Notes: generated by a model from the sequence alone, not told the origin. DNA of 64,000 bases from Patescibacteria group bacterium (GCA_041665845.1 JBAYIC010000004.1:939-64938); one strand, 5' to 3'. Counted from the first letter of the stretch, positions 9,724-27,902 are shown. A program made the numbers and translations.

Positions 9724-10494
9724 TTACAATGCGACAAATTGCTCTTCCCGATCAAACAGAAAGGCTTTTATCTCGTCTCTTAAAAGAGTAACCGAGACAT
9801 TGCCCCAAAAAATATCATTCGGGAAAATTAATTTTTCACTTATTCGGTCAAAAACATTCTCCTTATCAGCCATAACTCTAAATAACTGGGTCGCTAAATT
9901 TTCTAATTCTTCTTTGCGTCCATCAATTAGGTTGCAGTTAGTAAAAATATGTTGCAGACATTTATTGAAATAAAATATTTTTTTATCAGCCTTAACGTCC
10001 TGCATTAAAAGAATCTTATTCAAAGTTTTAACATCAGAGTAATCGCCTATTTCAAGCTTAAGGTAGCAGGGGAAACAAACATTTCTACCCAGAACTTCAA
10101 CTTCAAGCACGACTTTGATACTATAGCTGATAACAATTTTCGCACTCCAATCTTTGGGAAAATAAATAATTTTATAGTAAAACTTTCCCCAAACTGGTTT
10201 CTGATATTTCTCCGGCGTAGTGCCATCGCGATAAATAATTACCACCTTGCCTGGATTAGACGAAAAACTGGTAACCTTTTTACTAATAACCCAAAGGTCA
10301 AGCGATAAAATTACAAGAATCAAACCAGCAATCCAAGTTGATGTTAGAGATTCCAGGGAAAGCCCCAGTATAGAAACCACTGCCAAGATATAGGCAATAG
10401 CACTTAAAAGAGCGGATACTACCAATACGTAAACCAGCTCACCAGCAGAAAACAAAATGATTTTTTTCATTTCATGATTTTTTTTATTATGCAT
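9724..10494 (-). CDS. Paralog 1 of 4: two-TM membrane protein of unknown function
   Basis: Two TM helices followed by a soluble domain with family motifs YQKPVWGK, YFPKDW, FYFNKCLQHIF, IFPNDIF. It overlaps paralog 2 by 8 nt. Confidence 0.7.
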   Translation of the reverse strand: MHNKKNHEMKKIILFSAGELVYVLVVSALLSAIAYILAVVSILGLSLESLTSTWIAGLILVILSLDLWVISKKVTSFSSNPGKVVIIYRDGTTPEKYQKPVWGKFYYKIIYFPKDWSAKIVISYSIKVVLEVEVLGRNVCFPCYLKLEIGDYSDVKTLNKILLMQDVKADKKIFYFNKCLQHIFTNCNLIDGRKEELENLATQLFRVMADKENVFDRISEKLIFPNDIFWGNVSVTLLRDEIKAFLFDREEQFVAL

Positions 10495-11251
10495 TTCTTA
10501 CTCCTAATGTTAACAACATTAACTTAGTTTTTGCTCCCAAAAACAAATCAGGAAAACTAGCCATCTCTTCAATTTCACTTAAAGCGTTAGCTCGCATTTT
10601 CATATTATTAGTAGTACAAATACTAGCCAACATTTTAAATCTAGTCTCTTTCTCTTCCGTCATGTTCGCGTGATAGAAAATATGTTCTAAACATTTTTTC
10701 AGAGAATATACGCTTTGATTAGTGCCTATATCTTGTCTGTCAATAATATATTTCCAATCTTTAGCATTTAATTGTCTATTGAATTTAAAGCTCAGGAGGA
10801 ACGGGAAAATTATCGTCGAACCTTCAACATCAACATAAAAGTCAATCTTCAAGATAAGACATTTATCAGTATCCCAGGGCCTTTCCCAATCCTGATCATC
10901 GGGAAGCTGAATTATCTGACAAAAGCATTTCCCCCAAAAAGGTTTCTGGTAAATAGACGGTTCATCCTCATCAATATTAGTTAAAATCACTTCTTTTTCA
11001 TTAAACTTGAAAACCGTAATCTTTGTCCTCACTATCACTAAATGAAGAATCACGAAAATCAAAATGTATAGAAGGAAAAAGCTCATGGCCTGATAAAAAC
11101 TATGTAAACCTTTTTCCGAAGGCCAATAAGGAGCAACAAAAAGAGCGAAATGCAAAGAAAATGCTATCAAGGCAATAAATACTCCAAAAGTAGCGGGTTT
11201 CTGAGCTGCCCTAACAAAATACTGTTTTAAGTATTCCTTAAATTGTTTCAT
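10487..11251 (-). CDS. Paralog 2 of 4: two-TM membrane protein of unknown function
   Basis: Motifs YLKQYFVRAAQKP, IYQKPFWGK, LPDDQDW, NAKDW, YSLKKCLEHIF, SFPDLF. It overlaps paralog 3 by 14 nt. Confidence 0.7.
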   Translation of the reverse strand: MKQFKEYLKQYFVRAAQKPATFGVFIALIAFSLHFALFVAPYWPSEKGLHSFYQAMSFFLLYILIFVILHLVIVRTKITVFKFNEKEVILTNIDEDEPSIYQKPFWGKCFCQIIQLPDDQDWERPWDTDKCLILKIDFYVDVEGSTIIFPFLLSFKFNRQLNAKDWKYIIDRQDIGTNQSVYSLKKCLEHIFYHANMTEEKETRFKMLASICTTNNMKMRANALSEIEEMASFPDLFLGAKTKLMLLTLGVRNA

Positions 11252-12065
11252 CTTCCAGATTTTTTACAGGTTTAAGTGGTTTTTCTAATAATTCATCATC
11301 AACAGAAATATTGTTAGATAATCTAATGTTCATAACAGTAAGAGTAGAAAAAAGGTCTCCAAACAAGAACCCCAATTTTACTAATTCTTGTTCTAATTTC
11401 TTTACCGTAATTTTTTCCTCTTTCCATTTGAGAAGTTGTTCTTTTACAACCGCTTCATTTTCCATCAAACTCGCAGTTACTATATTCTCTAAACATTTTT
11501 GGAAACTAAAAACTGTGCAATTTTTTCTATCAGCACCTTGTCTGTTAATCATTTCTTCAAGTTCTTTCGCTTGAAAATCCTTATAGAGATAGAGATCAAG
11601 ATAAAAGGCTAGGTAAGCCCAGTACTGGCCAATAACGTCATAGGGCAGAATTTCCAAACTTAGTTTCTTGTTCCTTAGGTCTAAATCATCGCTACTTAAA
11701 TCCCAATTTTCTGGAAAAACTATTTCAATAGCGATGGGTTCACCCCAAACTGGAAATTTATAAATCTCCGTCTCTTTTTTATCATCATAGCGCAAAAGGA
11801 TTATTTTGTTTTTCCGTTGCGGAAAAACGGTAATCCGAATATCTTTAACTGCTAGATGTAAAAACCAAAAGAAACAGACGCAGAGGAACAGAAATCCTAA
11901 AGTAATCTCCAGTGGAATTTCTAAGCACTTTTTTGAATCAACAAGCATGGCCGAGCCAAATACAATTAAAAACACAATCGTAGCGGCGTATAGAGCCCAG
12001 ACAAACGGGCTACCGGCCGCATACAAGAAATACTCTTTGATTAACCCCTTGATTAACTTTTTCAT
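11238..12065 (-). CDS. Paralog 3 of 4: two-TM membrane protein of unknown function
   Basis: Motifs LIKEYFLYAAGSP, IYKFPVWGE, FPENWDL, FQAKELEE, FSFQKCLENIV. ATGA overlap with paralog 4. Confidence 0.7.
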   Translation of the reverse strand: MKKLIKGLIKEYFLYAAGSPFVWALYAATIVFLIVFGSAMLVDSKKCLEIPLEITLGFLFLCVCFFWFLHLAVKDIRITVFPQRKNKIILLRYDDKKETEIYKFPVWGEPIAIEIVFPENWDLSSDDLDLRNKKLSLEILPYDVIGQYWAYLAFYLDLYLYKDFQAKELEEMINRQGADRKNCTVFSFQKCLENIVTASLMENEAVVKEQLLKWKEEKITVKKLEQELVKLGFLFGDLFSTLTVMNIRLSNNISVDDELLEKPLKPVKNLEDETI

Positions 12066-12844
12066 TTTTCTTCTTTTTTTGGATTGGTGTGTGAAAACTC
12101 CAGAGGCAAAAGCCTCATTTCAATAACTTCAATATTTGCAAAGAAGTTTTTAGGAAAAAGACTTAATGGCTCGAGCTCTTTGGTTAATTCCCAAGAAGTC
12201 ATTAGGTGCGCTTGGCATTTAAATAGATGAGGAATAATTTTCTCAATATTCTTAGCACAACGATTCGTAATAAGATTTTGCAAACAAGTTTGAAAATGAA
12301 AAACATGGTTATGCCTATCAATTTCTTTTTGTTCCTTAATTAAATCTTCTAAATCTTTGGCCTGAAAACTACCGCTAAAATTTAGCAAAAATACAAATGT
12401 TAGGTTCGCTAAATTTTTCTCATCAAGTGATATGGCTACTTCTAATCTGATTTCCCTCGCTATAGAGTCCTTATTTAAATCCCAAAATACCGGGAAATAA
12501 ATTCTAACATAAGGTACTTTGCCCCAAATTGGGTTTCTATAAATACGTGAAGAAGAATTCTTCGGCCTCAGCAGGACAATCATTCTTTCGTTAGAAAAGA
12601 AGTTAGTCATAAACCTCAAAGGAATAGCCAAGTTCAACAATAAAAAAGCAACCAAAATAGCCAAAAAACAAATATAAATATCCTGTTTAACGGCGTTGTA
12701 GACATCATTGTTTATTGCAACAATTTTAGCGGCTACAAGAGCTGGAATGAGAAAAACTAAAGCCACAACAAAAGCGGCTTTAAACGGACGATTAGCTGCC
12801 CATAAGAAATAACTTTGGATAAACTTTTCGATAATTTGTTTCAT
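12062..12844 (-). CDS. Paralog 4 of 4: two-TM membrane protein of unknown function (first gene of operon)
   Basis: Motifs FIQSYFLWAANRP, IYRNPIWGK, FPVFWDL, FQAKDLEDL, FHFQTCLQNLI, LFPKNFF. The TGA stop lies inside the ATGA overlap. Confidence 0.7.
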   Translation of the reverse strand: MKQIIEKFIQSYFLWAANRPFKAAFVVALVFLIPALVAAKIVAINNDVYNAVKQDIYICFLAILVAFLLLNLAIPLRFMTNFFSNERMIVLLRPKNSSSRIYRNPIWGKVPYVRIYFPVFWDLNKDSIAREIRLEVAISLDEKNLANLTFVFLLNFSGSFQAKDLEDLIKEQKEIDRHNHVFHFQTCLQNLITNRCAKNIEKIIPHLFKCQAHLMTSWELTKELEPLSLFPKNFFANIEVIEMRLLPLEFSHTNPKKEEK

Positions 12845-16218: not shown

Positions 16219-16334
16219 ATGTTTAGCTTGTTCCTTAAAATCATTATACCATCAGACTAGTATCTTTAAAAATAAAAAAAGAAGGCGACATGATAATTAC
16301 ACGCGCCTTCGAGAATAAAATAACTTACTTTTAA

Positions 16335-16640
16335 TCAAGCAAATGGATTAATAACTTTCAGATCTTCCTCCCGAACGGGGAGGCCTTCTTTCCTGCAAAA
16401 TTCGGCAAGGAATTTGTAGAATTTTTGCTCTTCAGAAATATGTACAGTAACCTGAACGTGGTAGCCAAAAGGGTGAGAGTAATACCCATCAATGGCCTTT
16501 GGTTCTTCACTTGAGTGGATTTCTTTGACTTTAAACGCTTCTCCGAAAGCAAGGGCAAAGTCCCACACCTTGTCTTTAGGTATAACAACATCTAATTTCA
16601 GCTGTTTGCTATAAATAATTACTTCGTTGTCCTCTATCAT
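16335..16640 (-). CDS. Hypothetical protein (101 aa)
   Basis: ORF with an AAGGAG Shine-Dalgarno sequence 7 nt upstream. It is the last gene of a four-gene unit and is followed by a terminator at about 16273-16312. Confidence 0.55.
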   Translation of the reverse strand: MIEDNEVIIYSKQLKLDVVIPKDKVWDFALAFGEAFKVKEIHSSEEPKAIDGYYSHPFGYHVQVTVHISEEQKFYKFLAEFCRKEGLPVREEDLKVINPFA

Positions 16641-16693
16641 AACGCATTCTCCTTTTAATGTTTAAGTGTTTGTTTTGTTTGGTTTTAAGTAAC

Positions 16694-16969
16694 TTATTGG
16701 TTAATCGGTTGTTCTACAATCCCAAAACCATGCATCCTTAAGAAATCGATAATTTCAAGGGTTGTAATTTCAGGAATTAATATTTCTGAAAAACCTTCTT
16801 TTAATTCTGAGACACTTATAATTCCGCAGTAATATGTCCTTAATAGTTTTTCAATTTTGGCATACATTACATCGTCGTAGTTTATAAGCAAACGCAAGGC
16901 AAATCCTTTTGATTCATTAAAAGGAACCATTTCGGTTTTTACTAAAACTTCATTTACTAATAGGTTCAT
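16694..16969 (-). CDS. Hypothetical protein (91 aa)
   Basis: ORF in an operon context only. Confidence 0.45.
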   Translation of the reverse strand: MNLLVNEVLVKTEMVPFNESKGFALRLLINYDDVMYAKIEKLLRTYYCGIISVSELKEGFSEILIPEITTLEIIDFLRMHGFGIVEQPINQ

Positions 16970-17007
16970 GTTAACTTTTTTAGTGATGTTTTTCGGTATT
17001 ATTGTTA

Positions 17008-17265
17008 TTATTTCAATATCTTCTTGAACATACCGGCTAGAATAATGCCGGTAATTTCCAGAACTGAGATCGCAAAGGCAATGTTAACTGCTTGATTCAA
17101 AGTAAGCGGTTTAAAAATTATGCCTTCAATAGGAAGTTGAACTATTACATAGTTCCACGCGTAAAGAATAGCGACAGCCGTTACTATAACCGCTGCGACA
17201 AAAGCCAAAAGTAATTTTAAGAACATGACATAATAATTTTTACCATTTATCTGACCAATCTTCAA
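17008..17265 (-). CDS. Small membrane protein (85 aa, two predicted TM helices)
   Basis: Hydrophobic stretches LLLAFVAAVIVTAVAILYAW and AFAISVLEITGIILAGMF. It overlaps the upstream gene by 26 nt. Confidence 0.5.
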   Translation of the reverse strand: MKIGQINGKNYYVMFLKLLLAFVAAVIVTAVAILYAWNYVIVQLPIEGIIFKPLTLNQAVNIAFAISVLEITGIILAGMFKKILK

Positions 17266-17761
17266 TCTTTTCTCCCCAATTAGCGTTCAAATGAAATTTC
17301 TGATCGTGTTCCCCCCAGCCTGCACAAAAAAGTATTCTTTTATCATCCTTTTCAATGCTCATCACAGCTACCTCTGCGACAAACTCGTGCCCTTTTGGTA
17401 GACTATTGCGATTTAATCGTATCTTTCCTTTCGGACCGATAAAAGAGGCACACCCGGGAATGTGATCGAATCCAAGCAAAATAGCTTCTTCAAGGGTCTT
17501 GGCTGAGTACATTATCAGTACATGATCGGCCGGTTTTTTCCTTAAGACATTTTCAATAACACCAAAATCATCATCAATGGAATCGATTTGTTCAATCCTT
17601 TTTTTCCAAGCATCAATGATAATGTCATGATCCTCCGGAATTGTAGTAGCCTTGATCAGTTCAGCTAAAATTTTAAGGTCACCAACAAACCAGCAATTAA
17701 TTGCACTCACGACTGATTTGTGAAATGGTTTTCCTAATTCGTTTTTTTCCATTTTGTCCAT
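17240..17761 (-). CDS. Hypothetical protein (173 aa)
   Basis: ORF with an AGGAGAA Shine-Dalgarno sequence. Promoter TTGACA-17-GTATAT at about 17812-17840. Confidence 0.55.
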   Translation of the reverse strand: MDKMEKNELGKPFHKSVVSAINCWFVGDLKILAELIKATTIPEDHDIIIDAWKKRIEQIDSIDDDFGVIENVLRKKPADHVLIMYSAKTLEEAILLGFDHIPGCASFIGPKGKIRLNRNSLPKGHEFVAEVAVMSIEKDDKRILFCAGWGEHDQKFHLNANWGEKIEDWSDKW

Positions 17762-17912
17762 AACAACGGGTTCTCCTATAATTAGTGAATATTTGTAAAA
17801 GTTCTATAATAACTAAAAAATATACCTTAATATTCCTATTTTTGTCAATTATTTATAAATCCCATTACCATGCCCTTTATAAATACCAGAATATTTAATA
17901 TAATTGAGCTGT

Positions 17913-18755
17913 ATGATATTCTTAAACTTTACAACGATTTCAATAATTTCCGCCTTCTTTGCGGCTATTGCCAATATCATGGCGCGGACGATTTTAAAAG
18001 ACTTGAAGGCTAAGGATATTTTGGCTATTAACTTCTTCACCATGGGAGCGGTTCTTCTAATTTTATCACCTTTCTTTTATAAATTTACCCCCTCTCCTTT
18101 AAATCTCGGCCTGTTAGTGTTAATCGCTCTGATTGATACGGTAGCAAATTATTTTTACTTTCAAACTTTTGAAAAGACTTCAGCCAGCATTGCTTCCCCC
18201 TTGCTTTCACTAGCTCCCGGGTTTACATTTCTTTTCGGTTGGCTCTTACTAAGTGAACCGGTAAACCTGAGAACAATTTTATTATGCTTAATAATTTTAA
18301 TTCTAGTAATTTTATTCTCGGTAAGTCTCTCCGACTTTCGTCAATTTAAAAAGAATACCCTTTGGCCGGCATTATTATCATCATTATTATTTGGTCTATC
18401 AGCTATTCCTTCTAAATTTTTATTAGACTCAGCTCAAGCAGTTAACGCCCCAACCCTATACATGTTTCGGGCCTGCTTTATTGCTCTTTTCTCAGTATTA
18501 TTTTTCAAATTTACAATTCAGAATATTTCTATCAAACAATACCGAACAATATTTTTTCGAGGACTATTTGTTATTGCACAATGGATACTTCTTTATTGGG
18601 CCCTATCGAAAGGTAGCGCTGGAGTTACTTTGACGCTTGGAAATATAACGCCAATATTTGTTTTTATTTTAAGCATAATCTTTCTAAAAGAAAAACCGAC
18701 TTTAAAGAAATTGTTGGCCGCCGGTCTGGTTCTTGTCTTATCATTTTTAATTTGA
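17913..18755 (+). CDS. EamA/DMT-family transporter
   Basis: About ten hydrophobic helices in two EamA-like halves. The track start at 17904 is TTG; the first ATG is at 17913. Confidence 0.8.
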   Translation: MIFLNFTTISIISAFFAAIANIMARTILKDLKAKDILAINFFTMGAVLLILSPFFYKFTPSPLNLGLLVLIALIDTVANYFYFQTFEKTSASIASPLLSLAPGFTFLFGWLLLSEPVNLRTILLCLIILILVILFSVSLSDFRQFKKNTLWPALLSSLLFGLSAIPSKFLLDSAQAVNAPTLYMFRACFIALFSVLFFKFTIQNISIKQYRTIFFRGLFVIAQWILLYWALSKGSAGVTLTLGNITPIFVFILSIIFLKEKPTLKKLLAAGLVLVLSFLI

Positions 18756-18785
18756 TAGCCTTTATAATAATTGAACTATAAATAT

Positions 18786-19802
18786 ATGAGTAAAACCCTT
18801 CTTCTCTTCTGTGGCGGAACAATCTCAATGCATAAGAATAACGAAACAAAAGCCCTAGACGTTTCCCACGGTTATGACCAGTTATTGAAGTTGGAACCGC
18901 GCTTTTCTCAAATTTGTGAAGTTGATATTGAATTTATAGATAATATCGACAGTACAAATATGACTAGCGAACACTGGTCTAGAATTGCCGAGACTATTGG
19001 GAAAAAATATAATGATTACGATGGTTTTGTAATAACCATGGGGACAAATACGATGGCCTATTGTTCGGCCGCCCTTTCTTTTGCTTTACAAAATATTGGC
19101 AAACCAGTTGTTTTAACTGGGGCACAAATTCCTGCTGAATCACTTTCGACAGATGCCCGTAATAACTTTATCAATGCCTTAAGACTCTCAACCCTAGACT
19201 TGGCAGGTGTCTTTATTGTTTTTGGTAGTAAAATTATAAAAGGTTGTCGAGCGAAAAAAGTTAGTGAATCAGAGCTAGACGCTTTTAGGACTTTTAATCA
19301 AAAAGATTTTGGCGAAATAGGCGTTGGAACTATTTTTAACTTCAAACAACCTCGTCACCAAGAACCTCTAAAAGTGCAGAGCAAATTTACTGAACAAATA
19401 GTTTGTTTAACTTTAATTCCTGGACTACAATCTAATATTTTAAAGGGTTTAATTGATTCAGGAACTAGAGGTTTTGTTTTACGCGCTTATGGATCCGGTG
19501 ATATTCCCTATGATTTCGAAGAATCTTTGCTGTATGCTAAAAATAAAAAAATCCCAATTGTTGTGACGACTCAGTGTCCTGGCGGAGCTACCGTGATGGG
19601 AATAAACGATGTTGGTTTAAAAGCTCTCCAAACTGGCGTTATTCAAGCTTTTGATATGTGTATGGAGGCAATGAGTACAAAATTAATGTGGCTTCTTGGT
19701 CAAAAGACTCCTTATGAAAAAATTAAAGACTTAATGGAAACTAATTTAATTGGTGAGGTGGATTCGTCACGGGCAGCAGCAATTATGGGAGTCGGAAAAT
19801 AA
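18786..19802 (+). CDS. ansA: L-asparaginase, type I family
   Basis: LLFCGGTISM (catalytic Thr motif), ITMGTNTMAY, GAQIPA. The track start at 18771 is TTG; the ATG is at 18786. Confidence 0.85.
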   Translation: MSKTLLLFCGGTISMHKNNETKALDVSHGYDQLLKLEPRFSQICEVDIEFIDNIDSTNMTSEHWSRIAETIGKKYNDYDGFVITMGTNTMAYCSAALSFALQNIGKPVVLTGAQIPAESLSTDARNNFINALRLSTLDLAGVFIVFGSKIIKGCRAKKVSESELDAFRTFNQKDFGEIGVGTIFNFKQPRHQEPLKVQSKFTEQIVCLTLIPGLQSNILKGLIDSGTRGFVLRAYGSGDIPYDFEESLLYAKNKKIPIVVTTQCPGGATVMGINDVGLKALQTGVIQAFDMCMEAMSTKLMWLLGQKTPYEKIKDLMETNLIGEVDSSRAAAIMGVGK

Positions 19803-19828
19803 ACCTAAACAAATAGATTTAAAACTGA

Positions 19829-19899
19829 GTACTAAAAAATGCCTTAAAGTTAAGGCATTTTTTTATTAAGCTCTTTTTCGCGGGTTGGTTATAAATTTT
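19829..19899. repeat. R-element copy 1 (hairpin + conserved 30-nt core)
   Basis: Hairpin aatgccttaa/ttaaggcatt (19838-19859), then the core agctctttttcgcgggttggttataaatttt (19869-19899). Confidence 0.7.
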
Positions 19900-19964
19900 G
19901 GGAAATAAAAAATCCCGAGGTTAATCAGGATTTTTTTAATGTTTGTGTTGTTTATTATTTGAGT

Positions 19965-20498
19965 TCATTTGAGCTCAATCGTAAAACATTGATAGCTTGG
20001 CTTATCAGGAGCACCATCTGATTTTACAGATAATTTACAAAATCGTGATAAGATAATATTTATATCTTCTACAATTTTTTGTAAAGAATTGGGTTCACCA
20101 TTAAAAAGATCTATACCGAGATTCCTGATATGCATATCATCCACATAAATAAATGTCGTGGTTATATACATATTTGGGTTTTTCTCTGGGTGGATTTTGA
20201 TTGACTCGTTAATAAGCACTTGAAGTAGGGTTCCTTTTTCTTGATGGCTCATTATATTGCTTCCACCAACATAAGCATGTATATACGCTTTTAACTGCAA
20301 TAACTTTGCGCAGGGTCCTCCCGGCAGAAGCTTTATTAATTCTTCAGATAATCTACTCGCAATCGCTGTTTTCGATTTATAAACTTCTTTATTGCTTTCT
20401 TCAATCTTTTTAAGCAATGCTGTTTTTTTAACTTCATTGTTTTTTAACATTTCCTGAAGCTCGGAAATTCCATTTTTTAAAAAATCATTTTTCGCCAT
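19965..20498 (-). CDS. Hypothetical protein (177 aa), coiled-coil N-terminus
   Basis: ORF 25 nt downstream of the 257-aa gene. No recognisable domain. Confidence 0.5.
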   Translation of the reverse strand: MAKNDFLKNGISELQEMLKNNEVKKTALLKKIEESNKEVYKSKTAIASRLSEELIKLLPGGPCAKLLQLKAYIHAYVGGSNIMSHQEKGTLLQVLINESIKIHPEKNPNMYITTTFIYVDDMHIRNLGIDLFNGEPNSLQKIVEDINIILSRFCKLSVKSDGAPDKPSYQCFTIELK

Positions 20499-20523
20499 TT
20501 TGTCCTTTTTAGGATTATTAATT

Positions 20524-21297
20524 TTACGCTTGGTTGATTTTTTTCCAAGCAGCTACACCGTCGATGATTCTAAAATCGGTTTCACTTATTTTCCAATAAA
20601 AACCAATAAGTTCACCTGGTTTCGCGTAGATATTACCAAAAAAAACAACCTCGGCCTCAAGCATTTCACCGCTGGTAAAAATAACCGAATATTTTCTACC
20701 TTCATAATTTTTTGGTAATTTAAGGTAATGAGAGAGCCCCTCTATTCTCTGGCCATTAGATCTTTTCAATAAGTCAAAATACTCGTCCCATAAAGGACTC
20801 TGCTCTTCGCCGTTATCAATTATTTCTTTTAGCGCGGCGGCATTTTCTGCCTGATTTTTACTTAATTTATAAATCAGATAAGATTCTTGACCATCATCCG
20901 GTTCCATATACGGGAGCAGGGAGTTAATATTTTCTTTTAACTCATTCAAATAATAACCAGGGAACTCTTTGTGGATTTTCTCAACAACAGAAATTGAACT
21001 CTGAGTGACCAAGCAATGAAAAACGTTAATGTCAGATAGACCATAAGCCGTCAGCTTAGCTAACAATTCATTTTCGAATGAATACTGGTATTCCCAGAAG
21101 ATATTATTCGCGATAGGATCTTTTAAAACCAAAAATTTAGGGATACTGATATTTGTTTCGCGAAATTTGCAAACAGAAGCTACTAATGTATCTAAAGTTT
21201 GTAAAAAATATTTTTTGCACTCTTCATCGGTGCCCGGCATATAGCTTGATGGCAAAAACGAAGTATTTACCACATAAACAATTGGATGTTTTTTCAT
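20524..21297 (-). CDS. Hypothetical protein (257 aa)
   Basis: ORF with promoter TTGACA-17-GTATAT (about 21431-21460) and a long structured leader. Confidence 0.5.
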   Translation of the reverse strand: MKKHPIVYVVNTSFLPSSYMPGTDEECKKYFLQTLDTLVASVCKFRETNISIPKFLVLKDPIANNIFWEYQYSFENELLAKLTAYGLSDINVFHCLVTQSSISVVEKIHKEFPGYYLNELKENINSLLPYMEPDDGQESYLIYKLSKNQAENAAALKEIIDNGEEQSPLWDEYFDLLKRSNGQRIEGLSHYLKLPKNYEGRKYSVIFTSGEMLEAEVVFFGNIYAKPGELIGFYWKISETDFRIIDGVAAWKKINQA

Positions 21298-21332
21298 TTT
21301 TTCTCGTTTTAATGATTATTTGTTAATTATTT

Positions 21333-21385
21333 TTTATTTAGTTACCTAAACAACCTGAAACGAGTTGCTTGGATAACTAAATAAA
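21333..21385 (-). promoter_or_regulatory. Long imperfect hairpin in the 5' leader of the 257-aa gene
   Basis: Arms tttatttagttacc (21333-21346) and ggataactaaataaa (21371-21385), plus inner pairing aacaac/gttgct. Confidence 0.4.
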
Positions 21386-21490
21386 TATTAACAATAATCA
21401 TGCATGTTAAAGTTCAATAACAGAAAAATATACCACAATGGCTTCATTTTTGTCAATTATTTACAAAATCTGCGACAATGGTATTTTTCG

Positions 21491-21560
21491 GATACTAAAA
21501 ATTACCTTAATCTTAAGGTAATTTTTAAGTGAGCTCTTTTTGCAGTTTGGTTATAAATCT
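21491..21560. repeat. R-element copy 2
   Basis: gatactaaaa + hairpin attaccttaa-tc-ttaaggtaat + core gagctctttttgcagtttggttataaatct (21531-21560). Near-identical to copy 4. Confidence 0.8.
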
Positions 21561-21615
21561 AGGTAATAAAAAAGGCCTTATTTCTAAAGCCTGTAAATTC
21601 TGCCACTGGTGATTA

Positions 21616-21825
21616 TTAATCGGACACTTCAATTACCTCCTCATTATCAGCTATCTCTATTTCCAACGGAGTCCCGTTTACTTTACGGTATGCACTATTT
21701 TTATCACCACCGTCTTTTCTGAATACAGTTATTCTCTCCTTATCTCCAGCTAACGCCTTCATCACTTCATTTTTAAAAACGAAGCTGTAGGCTCCAGATA
21801 AATCTTTAAAATGTTGAATTGCCAT
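21616..21825 (-). CDS. Hypothetical protein (69 aa)
   Basis: ORF with a GGGAGG Shine-Dalgarno sequence, flanked by R-elements 2 and 3. Confidence 0.5.
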   Translation of the reverse strand: MAIQHFKDLSGAYSFVFKNEVMKALAGDKERITVFRKDGGDKNSAYRKVNGTPLEIEIADNEEVIEVSD

Positions 21826-21950
21826 TTTTAGTTTCCTCCCATATTTTAAATTAGTATTTAATTATTAAAGTAATAAAATAACTTAACATAACCAATGGTA
21901 AATATCAATGCTTTTCTATCCCGTTAGGAGTGAGCCTAAATCGAATGGCT

Positions 21951-22020
21951 AATACCAAAAAACGCCAATGAAATGGCGTTTCTCGTTTAGAGCTCCTTTT
22001 GCGGTTTGGTTATAAATTTA
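21951..22020. repeat. R-element copy 3
   Basis: aataccaaaa + hairpin aacgcca/tggcgtt + core gagctccttttgcggtttggttataaattta (21990-22020). Confidence 0.75.
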
Positions 22021-22113
22021 GGAAAATAAAAAAGAGCCCTAGAACTCTTTTAAAATTATAATCTGACCTAGCCGCCATTCTTTTAAATGGCCATCTAGGA
22101 CAAATATATGCCA

Positions 22114-22419
22114 TTACTTTCTGACTAATTTAATAGTTACTATTGGATATTCTTCTATAACTATGAATTCTTCTTCCGGTAATTGTGCGGTCGTAAGCGC
22201 TAACTTTAATTCAGACATCCATTCAGAATGGAGTTGATGTCCCGTACGTTCTACGGTATCAACTAACTGCACAGCCGGACAGCCACATCGCAAAAAATTA
22301 ATAGCTGCTATGACATTGTTTATATAAGAACTTTTCATGCCAATTATTGGCACTTGGTTATTGTAGGCTGATATAATGCCACATTCACCATTTTGCATAA
22401 TTACTTTTTTCTGTTTCAT
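22114..22419 (-). CDS. Hypothetical protein (101 aa)
   Basis: ORF between R-elements 3 and 4. Promoter TTGACA-17-ATAATT at about 22478-22508. Confidence 0.5.
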   Translation of the reverse strand: MKQKKVIMQNGECGIISAYNNQVPIIGMKSSYINNVIAAINFLRCGCPAVQLVDTVERTGHQLHSEWMSELKLALTTAQLPEEEFIVIEEYPIVTIKLVRK

Positions 22420-22554
22420 CTTGTGCGGTTTTTAATTTATAACTATTAATTTTTAATGTTCAATTTGTTTTATAGCTTAAATTATCACTTTTAATGCCAT
22501 TTTGTCAAGGAAAATATTCCATTATTTATAAACCTAACCAAAAGATTATTCTCT

Positions 22555-22626
22555 GGATACTAAAAATTACCTTAATCTTAAGGTAATTTTTAATGGAGCT
22601 CTTTTTGCAGTTTGGTTATAAATTTT
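22555..22626. repeat. R-element copy 4
   Basis: ggatactaaaa + hairpin attaccttaa-tc-ttaaggtaat + core gagctctttttgcagtttggttataaatttt (22596-22626). It abuts the stop codon at 22628. Confidence 0.8.
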
Positions 22627-22627
22627 A

Positions 22628-23053
22628 TTAATAGAGATATTTAATTATCTCTCCTCGCCAAAGGCAAATAATAATATCAATAATTACTCCTAATAAAACA
22701 AAGGATATAATATAAGTAAAATAACGCCATAGGAAATTTTTCTTTGGTAAGTCAATTTTTCCAACCATCTCCTCCATAGCCTTTTTTGATTCATTAATAG
22801 CAGAGTCATAATCAAAAATTGAGAATAGCAATGATGCTGGTATTAAAAATAATAATACCGAAAGAATCACTTTTATATTAGTAGTAATTTTTAATAAATC
22901 CGGATTAAAACTGGCTACTACTAGCACCATGGCTGATAACGAAGCAATGGCTGGAACTAAATTTGCTTTTTGAAGAAGGCAATTCTGAAAAAAGACTAAA
23001 TGGAGTTTTAATCTTTCAAGTTTTTCTTGTTGTTCTAAGGAGAGCTCTTGCAT
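22628..23053 (-). CDS. Hypothetical membrane protein (141 aa)
   Basis: Hydrophobic segments (AIASLSAMVLVVASF, VILSVLLFLIPASLLFSIF, FTYIISFVLLGVIIDIIICLW). Confidence 0.55.
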   Translation of the reverse strand: MQELSLEQQEKLERLKLHLVFFQNCLLQKANLVPAIASLSAMVLVVASFNPDLLKITTNIKVILSVLLFLIPASLLFSIFDYDSAINESKKAMEEMVGKIDLPKKNFLWRYFTYIISFVLLGVIIDIIICLWRGEIIKYLY

Positions 23054-23065
23054 ATATTTAAATTA

Positions 23066-23114
23066 AACAACAAAAACCCCCATTACGAGGGTTTTTATAA
23101 TCTGGGGATTATAA
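23066..23114. repeat. 49-nt direct repeat, left copy (terminator hairpin + ctggggattataaa)
   Basis: acaacaaaaacccccattacgagggtttttataatctggggattataaa. 46 of 49 positions match the copy at 24798-24846. Confidence 0.85.
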
Positions 23115-23148
23115 ATTTTTGAAAACATAAAATTAAAAAAATTGTAAT

Positions 23149-24756
23149 CTATTTTATTATCGTTTTTTTCTTTTCCGGGAATGCGGCGTCCATTGCCCCT
23201 GATTGAAAGCCATCTCCCCAAAATCCGCTAGACATCTTCGCGGCCTTTTGATCAAATTCTTCCAACAAATCCTCTAGCGGTCTAACAAAAACTTTTTTTA
23301 ACCACTCCTTATCATTCTTTAAAAACCGAGTAATTATAGGGGCACTTCCACTCATAAAAAGATAATTCCCTGCTGATGGAGTAGAAATCATGGGTTTTTG
23401 TGTATCTTTATCAATTACATCCATGGGGGACAAGCACAAGACATATTCACCAATATAAAATTCTCTCTCCTTATCTCTGATAGGATCATCAGTTATAAAA
23501 ATTTTATCAATTAACTGCTTTGTATATGAGGCGACTGGGTCAATCCATCTATTTTGAGGATATCCGCCATGCATGGGATGAAAAATTCCTTCTGCGCGGC
23601 GAATAAAAAAAAGTACATACGTAATAGGAAGTGGCTCATCATAGTGAGACCTGCTATTTAGTTCAAGCTTTAAAACTCTTTTTAATAATTTATCTTTTTT
23701 CTTCGCAACTGCAATTATAGAAATTAAATACAGAGAAATAAACAATGGATAATATCTTATGCTCTTGCCCCATTCTGTATAAGGGGTGCCATCTGGTGAT
23801 TCTATTTTTCTAGATAAATATGAGAGAACTTTTACTAAAACATCGTCGTAAACCCCCTTGTCATCCTTTGAAACTAAACTAATAATTGCCGACCAAAACT
23901 CCTGAGACGCCGACCCTATGTTAGATAATATTGCCGTACTCATCTCTTTATCTTCCTTGCCAATATCCCATGGAATTACATCTGAATCTAAAAAATTATT
24001 TATTTTATTAACTTCATCAAACATACCCTTCGATACGGCGTCTTCTTCTTTTGTTAATAGAGAATTTATCAACTCCGACACTGACCCTGCTGGTTCTATA
24101 ACTTCTGGAGATTTTACGGATTTTTTTTCCTCAGCAACTCCACTCACATCGCTAGGCCTAACTTTCAATTTTTTTAATTTAATATTTAAGTCCGATATCT
24201 GCCGTTGAACATCATATATCTTCTGTTGAGAATTGTATGTATGCTCTTCTAAACGTTGACTAAAAAATCTAGCAAAATCGCCCGGCTGAGCCTTACTTGT
24301 CGTCGTACCATTACGCACATAGATATCACCAACATACCGCTTATGAATATCCTTAATAAATACGTGAGGTGGTTCATTGGACGGCGGTATGACTAATACT
24401 CCCCATTGTTTGTCATCTTTTCCAAAAATAAATAGATGGGTCGTAATAAATTGACCAATATACTTTTTAACTAAGTCATCGATGGTAGCCTGGAGGTGAT
24501 CTTCGTTATCAGGGAATGTAGTATATAATATGCTATTAGCAGAAGCACCAAATATTATAAACCCGTGATTCTTATAATGATGACAATACGTGTTTGCTAT
24601 CGCAGAGATATCTTTTAAAAATTCTCCTTGATGTTGAATATCGGACATGTTAAAAGAACTTTTTAAATCAACCTTGCCGGCTTCGCCAGTAGAAATTATC
24701 TTTGGCAAAAAACCTTCCAATGTAGCTCTATCCCATGGTAAATGTAATTCTTCCAT
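23149..24756 (-). CDS. Schlafen/AlbA_2-like putative DNA-binding domain protein with uncharacterised C-terminal region
   Basis: The N-terminal roughly 130 aa (GKVDLKSSF...FLKDISAIANT...GFIIFGA...WGVLVIPPS...PHVF) resemble the AlbA_2 pattern. The remaining roughly 400 aa are unassigned. Confidence 0.55.
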   Translation of the reverse strand: MEELHLPWDRATLEGFLPKIISTGEAGKVDLKSSFNMSDIQHQGEFLKDISAIANTYCHHYKNHGFIIFGASANSILYTTFPDNEDHLQATIDDLVKKYIGQFITTHLFIFGKDDKQWGVLVIPPSNEPPHVFIKDIHKRYVGDIYVRNGTTTSKAQPGDFARFFSQRLEEHTYNSQQKIYDVQRQISDLNIKLKKLKVRPSDVSGVAEEKKSVKSPEVIEPAGSVSELINSLLTKEEDAVSKGMFDEVNKINNFLDSDVIPWDIGKEDKEMSTAILSNIGSASQEFWSAIISLVSKDDKGVYDDVLVKVLSYLSRKIESPDGTPYTEWGKSIRYYPLFISLYLISIIAVAKKKDKLLKRVLKLELNSRSHYDEPLPITYVLFFIRRAEGIFHPMHGGYPQNRWIDPVASYTKQLIDKIFITDDPIRDKEREFYIGEYVLCLSPMDVIDKDTQKPMISTPSAGNYLFMSGSAPIITRFLKNDKEWLKKVFVRPLEDLLEEFDQKAAKMSSGFWGDGFQSGAMDAAFPEKKKTIIK

Positions 24757-24797
24757 ATTTATTAAAAGTATATATAGCTATTTAAAAATAATAATAT

Positions 24798-24846
24798 ACA
24801 ACAAAAACCCCCATTACGAGGGTTCCTGTAATCTGGGGATTATAAA
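24798..24846. repeat. 49-nt direct repeat, right copy, 10 nt from the tRNA-Gly 3' end
   Basis: acaacaaaaacccccattacgagggttcctgtaatctggggattataaa. Confidence 0.85.
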
Positions 24847-24856
24847 CCCCCGTAAA

Positions 24857-24931
24857 TGGAGCGGGTAACGGGAATCGAACCCGTCTATCGTGCTTGGCAA
24901 GCACGTATAATAACCACTATACTATACCCGC
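24857..24931 (-). tRNA. tRNA-Gly (anticodon GCC), CCA encoded
   Basis: Hand-folded cloverleaf. Acceptor GCGGGTA/TACCCGC, anticodon arm CGTGC-TTGCCAA-GCACG, T arm ACGGG-TTCGATT-CCCGT. Confidence 0.9.
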
Positions 24932-24935
24932 TTAA

Positions 24936-25598
24936 TTAGAATTCTTTTCTAAACAAATCTAACCAAACTAAAATTTTCTTTTTTAAATACTTACTATGTA
25001 CAGAAACAATGCAAACTCCATATCCCAATTTTCTAGTTTTATGCCTACCTTTAATCACGGTTGATTTAAAAAATCTATCTTTTGCTATTTTAATTTCTTT
25101 GCTCCAAAACTCTAAACATTTTTCAGAATTTAAATCTGGATACAACAACATTCCAGCTCTAATATTTTCAACACTCACATTACAAACCTTTTGTAAAAAA
25201 TCATTAAAAACTTTTAAAACTTTTTCATCAACATTAGAAATTCTTACAATACCATTCTTAAAGATTTTATCACCCTCTCCCCAATATAAACTGATGGCGG
25301 TTATAAATAATGTTTCTTTTTTTAAATCTACAAATTCTTTAATAGCCTCTTGCTCGGCTTGAGCATAATGTTTATCTAATGCATTTCTTCTCTCAATATT
25401 TAAGTGCGTTAATCTTTTTCGACTACTTTCTTTTGATTTTTCAATTAATTGATTTTTTATATCTTGTGACCAATTAATATCTTTGAACCAAGCAGAAATT
25501 GTACTTTTACTTATTGCTAAAAGATTAGCAATTTCCTTATAACTTTTACCGCTCTTACGCAAACCAAGCGCTTGATTTTTTACTGCTTCTTTTTTCAT
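24936..25598 (-). CDS. HTH protein with possible LAGLIDADG-like homing-endonuclease C-domain
   Basis: N-terminal HTH KSYKEIANLLAISKSTISAWF. The C-domain motif AISLYWGEGDK resembles a single LAGLIDADG-type motif. The gene sits between tRNA-Leu and tRNA-Gly. Confidence 0.45.
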   Translation of the reverse strand: MKKEAVKNQALGLRKSGKSYKEIANLLAISKSTISAWFKDINWSQDIKNQLIEKSKESSRKRLTHLNIERRNALDKHYAQAEQEAIKEFVDLKKETLFITAISLYWGEGDKIFKNGIVRISNVDEKVLKVFNDFLQKVCNVSVENIRAGMLLYPDLNSEKCLEFWSKEIKIAKDRFFKSTVIKGRHKTRKLGYGVCIVSVHSKYLKKKILVWLDLFRKEF

Positions 25599-25652
25599 AA
25601 ACCCATGTTAATACCTTTCCATTATACTACACGGGTTCACTTTTGTCTAACG

Positions 25653-25735
25653 TGGTCCAGGTGGGAATCGAACCCACATACCTTTTGGGCACAGCATTTT
25701 AAGTGCTGCGTGTATACCAGTTCCACCACTGGACC
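25653..25735 (-). tRNA. tRNA-Leu (anticodon TAA), long variable arm, CCA not encoded
   Basis: Acceptor GGTCCAG/CTGGACC, anticodon arm CAGCA-CTTAAAA-TGCTG, variable arm TGCCCAAAAGGTAT, T arm GTGGG-TTCGATT-CCCAC. Confidence 0.9.
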
Positions 25736-25772
25736 AGTGCTATTTTGTTTAACCAAAAACCTCAGTAATCTG

Positions 25773-26152
25773 TGGAGATGATGGGAGTTGAACCCATGTC
25801 CAATCGGTTTTTCTAAATACATTTACAAAGTTATCCCGATTTGTTTTGTTTAACTTGAGCTATCGTAAACCGGACAAAAGCAGTTCAAGCGATCTTCCTA
25901 TTGTTTTGATATAACTTGGAAAGCGCAAATTTTATCTATCTCCATTTTAATGACACCGGCTAGCGGGTATGGAGACTCGCCGTAGTCCGATGGCTTTAGC
26001 TATTAAGCTAAAACAGGAGCGTAACTTGGAGTTAACCAAGTAAACGCTGTTGCCTTTTTGGCATTTGTGTTTTTTTAGCCATTTTAACGCGATTAACTAA
26101 GCGCGCTTTGAATATTTAGAAAAGAATCCAACTGTCGATTCCTTGCATCCCC
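25773..26152 (-). ncRNA. ssrA: tmRNA (SsrA)
   Basis: 5' GGGGATGCAAGGAATCGACAG and 3' GGACATGGGTTCAACTCCCATCATCTCCA form a tRNA-like domain. A candidate tag frame ends ...TPSYAPVLA followed by TAA TAG. It lies directly downstream of smpB. Confidence 0.9.
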
Positions 26153-26161
26153 TAATCTAAT

Positions 26162-26623
26162 TTATCTACTTCTTTTTGTTAACGACCTCAGATTTCTTTC
26201 CACTTCCCGCTTCTTAATCGATTCTCTTTTATCGTATTTCTTCTTACCCCTTCCAACGGCGAACTCAAGCTTCAGAAAACTATGTTTAGTATATATTTTG
26301 AGAGGTATTAGTGTCAAGCCCTCTTCCTTTTTTTTCCCTAAAAGTCGGCTAATTTCCTTATAATTCAATAATAACTTCCTTTCGCGCGCCTTATCATAAT
26401 CAGGCATTGGCCCAGAATATTTATATGGTGGAATTTGGCAACCGATTAAAAATAGTTCAGTTTTCCCGTCAGTCGTACGAATACTAATATAACTCCCCTT
26501 AAGGCCCGCCTGCCCCGCCCTCACCGATTTAACTTCATAACCAAACAAAACTAGACCTGCTTCGTATTTATCGAGCAGCTCATAATCAAAGCTAGCTTTT
26601 TTGTTTATCGCCAAAGTCGGCAT
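26162..26623 (-). CDS. smpB: SsrA-binding protein SmpB
   Basis: INKKASFDYELLDKYEAGLVLFGYEVKS and a basic C-terminal tail. Adjacent to the tmRNA. Confidence 0.9.
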   Translation of the reverse strand: MPTLAINKKASFDYELLDKYEAGLVLFGYEVKSVRAGQAGLKGSYISIRTTDGKTELFLIGCQIPPYKYSGPMPDYDKARERKLLLNYKEISRLLGKKKEEGLTLIPLKIYTKHSFLKLEFAVGRGKKKYDKRESIKKREVERNLRSLTKRSR

Positions 26624-27902
26624 AATTCCATTCTTTTAATTTCGCTAATACTTTTTCGTTAGTTAAAATATTATTTAAATAAGTTGCATAATTTTTTTCA
26701 GCAATCATCTTTAAAACATCTTGATTGCTAGCATACTGTTTTTTTAATTCATCAATTTTTTCGTTTATCTCTTTTTCCGTCGGAGCGATTTTTTCAATCA
26801 AAGCAATCTCTCTAATTATTAGTGCAGCTTTAACACGCTTGATTGCATTAGGCATTAATTCCAACATTAATTCTTCCTGTGTTTTTTTAAGATGACTTAA
26901 ATAATCAGCAAATTTACCGCCCTGTTTTACAACCGATTGTTCAAGCTCCATCATTAAATTCTTAGATTCACTTTCAATAATAACATCAGGGAAATCACCA
27001 AATTTAGTCTTATCACTTATTTTAGCGATTAATTCTGATTCATTTTTTAAATCAATATTATGTGATTTCTCATGAAGCAAACTTTCTTCTAAATTTTTCT
27101 TGAGTTCTTCCATATCTTTTAGTCGGAAAAAGCTGGCAAACTCATCATTTAATTCTGGTAGCTCTCTTTCATAAACTTCCTTTACAACCGCTGTAAAATC
27201 AACCATTTTGCCAGCTAAGTTTTTCTGATGATGATCATCTGGGTATGGTAAAGAAAATTTTCTCTCTTCTCCCTTTTTCATGCCTAAAATATTTTTATCA
27301 AACCCCGGAACAAAATAATTCTTTCCCATCATGATTGCTAAATCATGATGATGGCCATCTTCTAAAGGAACCTTATCTAAAAACATGTGGACAGTTGCGA
27401 TTACTTTATCGCTACCCATTACTTCACGTTCAACAATTTTTTCACTCGCTCTCATTTCTCTTAAGTCATTAAGAGCCCTATCTAATTCCTTGGTTTCAAT
27501 TTTTGCTATTTCCGGTTTTAAATTAAGATTTTTGTATTCTCCAAGAGCAATTGTTGGAAGTAAGGAAACAACAACTTTGTATTCTAAAGGATTTCCAGGG
27601 GCAAGTTTAGTAATTGTGATATTTGGTTGCCCAACCGGTTGGCGCCCCATAGTTTCTTGATCGAGAATTTCATCGACTGTTTTAGTAATAGCAATATGAG
27701 CAGCTTCTTCTAGAATGGTCATTTCACCGATTTTTTGTTTTAAGACATCAAATGGAACTTTTCCAGGACGAAAACCTTCAATTTTAACTTTTTCAGAAAC
27801 TTTTTGCGCTCCTTTTTCAATATAAGGGGTAAATTCTTCAACACTTAACTCAATATTTAGCTCAATTTGTGATTTTTCCAAATCTTTTTTATTTACTTGC
27901 AT
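26592..27902 (-). CDS. tig: Trigger factor
   Basis: N-terminal ribosome-binding region with GFRPGKVP, a central PPIase-like segment and a C-terminal arm domain. Confidence 0.9.
   Translation of the reverse strand: MQVNKKDLEKSQIELNIELSVEEFTPYIEKGAQKVSEKVKIEGFRPGKVPFDVLKQKIGEMTILEEAAHIAITKTVDEILDQETMGRQPVGQPNITITKLAPGNPLEYKVVVSLLPTIALGEYKNLNLKPEIAKIETKELDRALNDLREMRASEKIVEREVMGSDKVIATVHMFLDKVPLEDGHHHDLAIMMGKNYFVPGFDKNILGMKKGEERKFSLPYPDDHHQKNLAGKMVDFTAVVKEVYERELPELNDEFASFFRLKDMEELKKNLEESLLHEKSHNIDLKNESELIAKISDKTKFGDFPDVIIESESKNLMMELEQSVVKQGGKFADYLSHLKKTQEELMLELMPNAIKRVKAALIIREIALIEKIAPTEKEINEKIDELKKQYASNQDVLKMIAEKNYATYLNNILTNEKVLAKLKEWNYADFGDKQKS

Follow-up and report, generated by a model that had tools for sequence, protein, structure and literature searches.

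How do small genes with no evident connection to each other come to stand in a row behind a transfer RNA (tRNA) gene, most of them followed by a copy of the same repeat? This question is raised by positions 19829-24856 of a 64,000-nt stretch of DNA from a Patescibacteria group bacterium (GCA_041665845.1, JBAYIC010000004.1:939-64938; the whole stretch is called the window below), where repeat copies R1 to R6 lie between an asparaginase gene and tRNA-Gly(GCC). A preliminary description, made from the sequence of the window alone, had suggested that a conserved core of about 30 nt in R1-R4 organises single-gene cassettes, either as a recombination site or as a shared RNA element. Comparison of the locus with its counterparts in related genomes supported the cassette part of this suggestion: the core organises mostly single-gene cassettes beside the tRNA/tmRNA cluster, and related loci differ by breakpoints at the repeats. 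From the same comparison we infer a recombination mechanism, which is set out and weighed below.

The core is 28-31 nt long, reads TAAATTTATAACCAAACYGCAAAARGAGCTC on the gene strand, and lies at + strand positions 19869-19898 (R1), 21530-21561 (R2), 21990-22020 (R3) and 22595-22626 (R4). Three of the window copies matched GAGCTCTTTTTGCRGTTTGGTTATAAAT with at most one mismatch, compared to 0.00 expected in shuffled sequences, and allowing up to three mismatches gave three occurrences, again with 0.00 expected; R1 is a degenerate copy carrying an indel. A profile search with nhmmer detected only these four copies in the whole window. The repeats are therefore genuine, far above the shuffle expectation and concentrated in one locus, and the near-identity ascribed to R2 and R4 was borne out at 82% over 116 nt. 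The variant AAAAAGAGCT, present in three of the four window cores, is private to the window.

On the gene strand, the intergenic regions follow one plan, in which the stop codon is followed by the core, sometimes after a first terminator, and the core by a strong hairpin with A and T tracts; in two of the intergenic regions of the window, a good sigma-70-type promoter for the next gene comes after the hairpin. Folding of each R1-R4 copy gave a strong hairpin with A and T runs alongside, at -14 to -18.5 kcal/mol (z -3.3 to -4.7). The preliminary description was right about a hairpin in each copy but not about the variability of the hairpins, as they are not freely variable and belong to a few discrete sequence families. 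It was also right to read them as intrinsic, bidirectional terminators, being A-tract/T-tract stem-loops at gene ends, although this applies to the hairpins only: terminator function does not account for the 28-nt core, which is located outside the hairpin. Degenerate inverted copies of the core, thought to form a composite palindrome with the hairpin, were not substantiated, as the best inverted core match beyond the hairpin scored 15.6 versus 14.2 in shuffles (26 copies) and most such matches were AT-rich promoter sequence. The element shared by R5 and R6 was recovered as a 52-nt direct repeat of 92% identity (R5 23064-23115, R6 24795-24846) that flanks a gene for a 535-aa protein.

The core family was collected by an exact-pattern scan of one genome per species of the GTDB, followed by a search of metagenomes with a stricter pattern. 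In the species scan, true matches were found only in five metagenome-assembled genomes of Patescibacteria/Falkowbacteria, each within a single 8-kb block, whereas the stricter pattern yielded 20 metagenome loci, all of them genuine. Extra copies were present in L066 and L071, two loci reached through SmpB homologues (L numbers denote related loci). After removal of duplicates, 36 distinct core junctions from about 21 Falkowbacteria-like loci were available, in a single orientation throughout. Wherever the tRNA is visible (13 of 13 distinct loci), the cores lie downstream of the tRNA-Gly(GCC) of a tmRNA-tRNA-Leu-tRNA-Gly cluster, at a distance of 0.3-5 kb, and the loci without a visible tRNA have a common downstream flank, as do L036 and L041 with L018. 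The core was confined to one locus per genome, rather than being scattered over ordinary terminators.

Conservation of the core is sharp-edged, beginning with ATTTATAA directly after TAA and ending at GAGCTC, and consists of invariant blocks with tolerated positions (15-16 and 22-23) between them. The search pattern itself accounts for some of this conservation, although positions 1, 16, 22, 23 and 28, on which the pattern set no constraint, were also strongly conserved. In 17 of 27 copies, the core comes immediately after a stop codon (TAA in 14); the core itself offers stop codons in two frames, and in L025 the stop is supplied by its own TTTATAA. A complete terminator stands upstream of the core in at least seven copies. 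In L028, the core keeps its orientation relative to the tRNA even though its neighbouring genes lie on the opposite strand. No internal structure was obtained on folding the core, and Rfam 15 gave no match for the core or for core plus hairpin (E<=1 over 17000-27000, E<=10 on R4 alone). With a terminator before the core in several copies and the neighbours on the opposite strand in L028, the absence of an Rfam match spoke against the shared structured RNA element that had been considered.

Other identities of the core were tried and rejected. As a tRNA-like element (T-arm plus acceptor, or acceptor plus D-arm on the other strand), it had no Infernal tRNA match at E<=10, and its putative stem showed no covariation. 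In a Shine-Dalgarno element the GG of AAGGAG should not vary as it does here (AG, TT, TG, AA, GT, GA). As a + strand promoter, the core matched the -35/extended -10 pattern poorly and had no conserved product downstream, and the + strand gene of L028 has its own TTGACA-17-TATGAT promoter. A dif/Xer site was dismissed on inspection, with 9 of 28 positions matching E. coli dif and no inverted arms.

The gene content of the locus was compared among relatives. The backbone tig-smpB-tmRNA-tRNA-Leu-tRNA-Gly-(variable part)-S1-FtsH-L32-NusB-RNase III is conserved, and each genome has its own, unrelated genes between tRNA-Gly and the cores. According to Pfam, they include Maf, Peptidase_S51, an AAA_22 ATPase with a Trypsin_2 protease, Hypoth_Ymh and an OLD-like AAA_15/AAA_21 protein within a four-gene block; isochorismatase, NUDIX, GNAT, cupin and methyltransferase proteins were recognised by eye, together with many orphans. 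The tRNA-Gly of the window is 100% identical to that of L005. A homologue of the 177-aa gene of the window, likewise followed by terminator and core, forms the fifth unit of a seven-unit array in L043, in a different context, and a gene common to L026 and L044 has different neighbours past the core. The minimal array of L071 consists of the tRNA, a 59-aa open reading frame (ORF), a terminator and a core variant that adjoins the S1 promoter region, so that its variable part is only about 0.6 kb long; that of the window is probably about 19 kb, taking the ORFs at 4665-5882 and 2718-4547 as S1 and FtsH by their gene size. By synteny BLAST, window positions 16219-24856 are without counterpart in L049, which is the closest relative found (90% identity in SmpB, 79-85% in the flanks). 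Presence/absence polymorphism between relatives, with breakpoints at the repeats, was thus observed; instead of an identical, syntenic gene set, the relatives showed extreme cassette polymorphism. Related contigs often end a few hundred bases past the smpB/tmRNA/tRNA cluster (L055-L058, L064, L065, L068-L070, L075), which is consistent with assembly breaks caused by strain heterogeneity.

The tRNA gene ends in ...GTTACCCGCTC(CA) and the core in ...AAAAGGAGCTC(C/A), and both finish in GCTC. The 45 nt past GCTC, taken from 16 distinct tRNA-Gly genes and 36 distinct cores, were clustered. Five clusters contained 15 of the 16 tRNA-Gly trailers, and every one of them also held post-core sequences, in register from the first base. 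The R6-type module follows tRNA-Gly in six genomes (the window, L015, L025, L039, L044 and L066) and a core in L004/L041 and L043, where intact core-R6 junctions were located at 11786 (L041) and 5008 (L043). Among the hairpin modules, named hp(a) to hp(e), hp(b) was found after tRNA-Gly in L005 and after cores in the window (R3), L005, L027, L038 and L043, whereas hp(d) directly follows tRNA-Gly in L027/L030 and cores in the window (R2, R4) and L029. The hp(c) and hp(e) modules behave in the same way, after tRNA-Gly and after cores, and the junction of core and hp(a) is the last one in L015 and L039, as it is in the window. Within 214 kb of the window plus flanking housekeeping DNA, the module families were restricted to this locus, and therefore they are not generic terminators. 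The clustering of tRNA trailers with post-core sequences shows, therefore, that tRNA end and core can replace each other as the left partner of a common set of modules, with the join at GCTC. As judged from its sequence, R5 is probably a core-R6 junction that lacks the 38 nt between two TTTATAA heptamers.

The order of elements in L044 agreed with this. There, the tRNA is followed by R6, a gene, a core, hp(e) and a GC-rich RNA-like element, whereas in L049, L034 and L058 the tRNA is followed directly by hp(e) and the GC-rich element. Such a difference is as expected from a module-gene-core unit inserted at the tRNA end, and not as expected from an insertion after the terminator of the tRNA.

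The GC-rich element is itself a structured sequence of about 160-175 nt (L049 11114-11276; also in L034, L058 and L044), which lies directly past the junction of tRNA-Gly and hp(e), or of core and hp(e) in L044. It starts with GGGAATCGAAC, the complement of the tRNA T-loop and stem, and in L049, L034 and L044 its end is a 17-21-nt repeat of the 3' end of tRNA-Gly (CGGAATTCCCGTTACCCGCTC), past which lies another terminator. RNAalifold predicted 45 pairs from the four copies, 21 of them with compensatory changes, and no Rfam family was matched at E<=10. The element may represent an RNA gene not known so far, a guide-like RNA, or an attachment site left behind by an integrated element.

Some modules comprise more than a terminator and a promoter. 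Between promoter and start codon, at 21298-21426 (-) of the window, there is a conserved leader of about 130 nt that contains a long hairpin (TTTAGTTATCC...GGTAACTAAA), and the same or a similar leader precedes unrelated ORFs in L029 and L043 (2272-2400). Leader included, the R2 module of the window is 77% identical to the module before an unrelated ORF in L029. It is possible that this leader is a cis-regulatory element travelling with the promoter module.

We consider, with moderate confidence, that small cassettes made up of module, gene and core accrete at the end of tRNA-Gly by recombination at GCTC, catalysed by an enzyme in trans. The unit would start with a terminator module specific to the locus, in many cases with promoter and leader; one accessory gene, or occasionally two to four, and a core would follow. 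Such a unit would form a circle in which core, GCTC and module make up a joined site, and this circle would recombine, by a crossover within GCTC, either at the end of tRNA-Gly or at the GCTC of a resident core. The array would grow from the tRNA, with the newest cassette beside it and older cassettes pushed outward. The incoming module would terminate the tRNA operon and promote the new gene, and the displaced module would terminate the new gene. The recombinase, putative in its existence as in its class, would be encoded outside the window.

A broader proposal is put forward only tentatively, namely that Falkowbacteria-like bacteria of the Candidate Phyla Radiation (CPR) possess a previously undescribed minimal gene-capture system, distinct from integrons. 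In such a system, the 3' end of tRNA-Gly would serve as attI and an unstructured 28-nt sequence ending in GCTC as attC, each cassette would carry its own terminator-promoter module, and the recombinase would come from elsewhere or from a transient element. No paper describing such arrays in CPR bacteria was found in the literature.

Several observations weigh against accretion by a dedicated recombinase, for which the core would be the site. By motif scan and Pfam listings, no intact recombinase was present in the window or in any of the about 21 arrays. The earlier statement that the window has no integrase was upheld for tyrosine recombinases by a six-frame scan of the 64 kb for the box II and HxLRH motifs, a scan that was not exhaustive for other recombinase classes. 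No circular or extrachromosomal copy bearing the core was found in IMG/VR (chance matches only or none), PLSDB or a phage collection. The core has no symmetry of inverted half-sites and is followed, to the right of GCTC, by variable sequence, which is atypical for core sites of tyrosine recombinases, and the identity common to core and tRNA amounts to only 4-6 nt, GCTC(CA). Close relatives (L059, L063 and L049) have variable genes at this place without any core, and some cassettes have no core, being units that lost it. Moreover, one and the same module can stand before unrelated genes with homology ending 13-20 nt before the start codon (window R2 versus L029), and R6 is found upstream of five unrelated genes. 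Recombination at other points, or module exchange, therefore also occurs. Cores are individually diverged in L043, whereas three of the four window cores carry one private variant. Given modules shared by unrelated ORFs, the loss of cores and this difference between L043 and the window, module exchange, decay and conversion therefore act on top of whatever inserts the units.

Genes or gene remnants of recombinases and transposases were seen in a few arrays. In L028, the only array with tyrosine-recombinase motifs, a truncated tyrosine-recombinase gene (2537-2690, +), of which the last 49 codons remain (...VIQHFLGHSDIRTTMRYAHLSP...), lies 65 nt from a core; it points away from the core and is followed on the same strand by the isochorismatase gene, both being opposite to normal cassette genes. 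A search with the 49-aa remnant returned one uninformative 77-aa protein. TnpA genes (PF01797) of an IS200/IS605 insertion sequence (IS) are found inside the arrays of L035 (120-700) and L038 (700-1330 and 1660-1827, two diverged copies). Near-identical copies of this IS occur without core in unrelated contexts of other Parcubacteria (L045-L048), and its ends, as defined in these four genomes by TTTTTTAT followed by the left end AAGMATTAAAAACCACCCGC... and by the right end ...GCCGGTGGTAGTTTATT, exclude the core. Its left and right hairpins are similar (CCACCCGC and CCACCGGC), and it inserts after TTTTTTAT in terminator T-runs. TnpA was therefore rejected as the cassette enzyme, as the IS ends exclude the core and the IS had merely inserted in the T-run before it. 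The divergence of L035 and L038 right after GAGCTCA, at first sight a recent event, was down-weighted, since the stretch shared by both is the IS plus the conserved core. Viral contigs bearing the tRNA-Gly 3' end were also discarded, being unrelated phages, mostly of high GC. In the distal flank of the L044 array, a 404-aa protein (43-1257, +) resembles, by eye, a transposase with a helix-turn-helix (HTH) and an rve/DDE domain (IS481/IS3-like).

The variety of breakpoints, which were found at GCTC, at the left edge of the core and before start codons, together with the modules common to unrelated genes, would also suit a process with no dedicated recombinase. The interval from tRNA-Gly to S1 would then be a generic hot spot in naturally competent cells, in which cores and modules serve as portable homologies for RecA-mediated, homology-facilitated or microhomology-mediated swaps. 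The long conserved tmRNA/tRNA cluster would be a strong anchor on one side, the private AAAAAGAGCT variant in most window cores suggests intragenomic conversion, a related Parcubacteria locus contains a competence gene of the ComEC type, and the failure to find a recombinase agrees with such a process. We regard it as rather unlikely, as homology alone cannot make tRNA-module and core-module junctions in register at GCTC for five module families. A passive 28-nt sequence would also have no obvious cause to stay near-invariant between species with flanking genes of only about 70% identity, and its strict orientation and stop-codon position would be left unexplained. In another alternative, the core is a cis-acting expression element, i.e. 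a protein-binding DNA site or an element of the 3' untranslated region acting with the terminator, with no role in recombination and the variability of the locus incidental. The core always lies between gene end and terminator hairpin on the gene strand, it gives stop codons in two frames (with the L025 stop coming from TTTATAA), and its invariant blocks separated by tolerated positions fit a protein-binding site. This explanation is nonetheless improbable in our view, because most transcripts of the copies with a complete terminator before the core would end ahead of it, and because core orientation in L028 follows the tRNA and not the neighbouring genes. The Shine-Dalgarno-like GGAG is not conserved, neither an Rfam match nor internal structure was found, a general element should not be restricted to one locus per genome, and the GCTC junction common with tRNA-Gly would be unexplained.

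The composite palindrome not being general, two further readings fall that depend on inverted symmetry, and each is considered very improbable. Integron attC sites in a cluster without integrase (CALIN) would account for single-gene, co-oriented cassettes with a repeat after each ORF, and R4 happens to hold GTTAGGT, which matches GTTRRRY, beyond its hairpin. A family-wide inverted R''/R' pair is lacking, however, by the comparison with shuffles given above, and the core is a conserved unpaired 28-nt sequence, whereas attC sites conserve their structure and not their sequence; the hairpins have the A and T tracts of canonical terminators, the window contains no IntI-type motif, and the array begins at tRNA-Gly. 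Dispersed non-autonomous transposons (miniature inverted-repeat transposable elements, repetitive extragenic palindromes, Correia-like elements) or palindromic elements derived from IS200/IS605 could be suspected from a weak terminal inverted similarity in R4 and from the TnpA genes within the L035 and L038 arrays. Against this, the core occurs in one locus and one orientation, inverted ends are not general, and the same IS in four other genomes ends in ...GGTGGTAGTTTATT without the core, as expected for a passenger in the terminator T-run.

Accretion of cassettes at the tRNA end has its closest parallels in elements that stack behind stable-RNA genes. In Dehalococcoides, tandem genomic islands (GIs) are stacked downstream of ssrA, bounded by a short repeat of the target 3' end that is preceded by an element-derived conserved motif, and some ssrA units without integration genes may be cis-mobilisable (PMC3146451). 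Accretion at tRNA genes of cis-mobilisable elements (CIMEs), and of integrative and mobilisable elements in streptococci, has been reviewed (PMC5704250). The arrays described here resemble ssrA-GIs and CIMEs in being anchored at the 3' end of a small stable-RNA gene with units head to tail downstream, in distal boundaries that may be read as an element-derived conserved motif and then a short target 3'-end repeat, in the many units without integration genes, and in the strong differences between strains. They differ in scale, with units of 0.3-3.5 kb and usually one gene compared to 5-50 kb, in a target repeat of 4-6 nt, GCTC(CA), compared to about 20 nt, and in a longer element-end motif of 24-28 nt. 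In addition, an intact integrase is absent from all units of the about 21 arrays, every unit comes with a terminator/promoter module that belongs to a small repertoire specific to the locus, and the host belongs to the CPR.

With chromosomal integrons and CALINs, the arrays have in common mostly single, co-oriented and unrelated accessory genes, each followed by a repeat resembling a recombination site, a content that differs between close relatives, and a repeat that abuts or supplies the stop codon. Unlike in integrons, this repeat is a conserved unpaired sequence and not a structured attC with paired R''/R', the array begins at a tRNA gene and not at attI/intI, most cassettes have their own promoter and terminator, and IntI is lacking. 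A further parallel is offered by the pdif (XerC/D) modules of Acinetobacter plasmids and by other Xer-exploiting elements, in which small groups of genes are delimited by 28-bp sites and a host recombinase supplied in trans shuffles them between replicons. The arrays are similar to these in having sites on the 28-bp scale that bound small gene modules, whereas the core does not have the two-arm palindromic architecture of dif (inspected against the E. coli and B. subtilis dif sequences) and all its copies are direct repeats, not alternating in orientation.

The layout of the window array, entirely on the minus strand, is as follows from the tRNA outward. ARAGORN and Rfam placed tRNA-Gly, tRNA-Leu and tmRNA at the positions expected from the preliminary description; tRNA-Gly(GCC), the anchor of the array, occupies 24857-24931 (Rfam tRNA, 64 bits). 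Its trailer module, R6 (24795-24856), is formed by the CATTTACGGGGGTTTATAATCCCC hairpin and the terminator AACCCTCGTAATGGGGGTTTTTG (fold -25.2 kcal/mol; terminator scan). The gene for the 535-aa protein (23149-24756) is defence-like, with matches to Pfam SLFN_AlbA_2 (E 1.3e-10) and to the PADLOC candidate PDC-S65 (E 5.6e-11). R5, the second copy of the R6 module, begins at TTTATAA and separates this gene from one for a 141-aa orphan (22628-23053), probably a membrane protein, with no significant family. The R4 core (AAAATTTATAACCAAACTGCAAAAAGAGCTCC) begins 1 nt past the stop codon of the latter and is followed by an hp(d) terminator module (22481-22594, stem 22559-22594), which includes a sigma-70-like promoter, TTGACA-16-GATAAT (22508-22481), for the next gene, a 101-aa orphan (22114-22419). 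A gene-proximal terminator (22030-22051) and the R3 core together span 21990-22051, and the hp(b) terminator module (21951-21989, stem 21956-21985, fold -18.5 kcal/mol) precedes a 69-aa orphan (21616-21825).

Behind this gene, a terminator (21573-21592) and the R2 core span 21530-21592, and the hp(d) module with its promoter and conserved leader of about 130 nt covers 21298-21529 (stem 21495-21528; sigma-70-type promoter TTGACA-18-TATATT for the next gene at 21456-21427). A two-gene cassette encoding 257 and 177 aa (19965-21297) comes next. The core-bearing part of the array ends distally in the region 19829-19937, which contains a gene-proximal terminator (about 19906-19937), the degenerate R1 core and the hp(a) terminator (19834-19863). 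The remainder of the strain-variable segment (16219-19828) holds four small minus-strand ORFs, and EamA and asparaginase (18771-19802) genes on the + strand; an exact look-up of the asparaginase protein had no match. Between the asparaginase gene and tRNA-Gly, ORF calling yielded six genes (177, 257, 69, 101, 141 and 535 aa), not the seven counted before, all of them on the minus strand as had been reported. Recognisable families were found by Pfam and PADLOC in the 535-aa protein only, and the GC content of the islet, 0.30-0.35, matches that of the remainder of the window.

Other features of the window were noted around the array. A possible decayed core, TTAAAACCAAACAAAAC, was seen at 16677-16695 (-), between the stop codon of a 91-aa ORF and the next start codon, and may suggest that the array once reached farther from the tRNA. 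Between tRNA-Leu and tRNA-Gly, a 220-aa protein (24936-25598, -) has an N-terminal HTH and an unassigned C-terminal domain with an LYWGEGD motif. A 36%-identical homologue occupies the same position in L025, and in most relatives the two tRNAs are adjacent; the protein may be the product of a homing-type selfish gene. PDB and NCBIfam searches with it found nothing beyond the HTH, and a single-sequence AlphaFold2 model was unusable (predicted local distance difference test score 49). Farther away, at 9724-12844 (-), lie four tandem ORFs of 254-275 aa without a Pfam match, in which a 28-nt internal repeat (CCCCAAACTGGTTTCTG...) recurs at 10187, 10932 and 11743. They have the appearance of paralogues within the larger variable interval, and L049 has two such ORFs.

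The genomes of CPR bacteria, or Patescibacteria, are tiny, with few mobile elements recognised in them, genetic tools are lacking, and the exchange of accessory and defence genes among them is poorly understood. The locus described here is single and sharply defined, with unrelated one-gene units behind a tRNA, each with a conserved end tag and portable expression modules. Defence-like units are among them, i.e. the Schlafen/AlbA_2 protein, the OLD-like ATPase, the ATPase with a trypsin-like protease and Hypoth_Ymh. Should there be a dedicated recombinase, its substrates are given by the core together with the tRNA end, which makes the enzyme amenable to testing. The locus is also a possible landing pad for the engineering of these organisms, and the arrangement would mark strain-level variation in metagenomes, since many assemblies break exactly there. 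For the biology of these bacteria, it would represent a compact model of gene capture without an integron.

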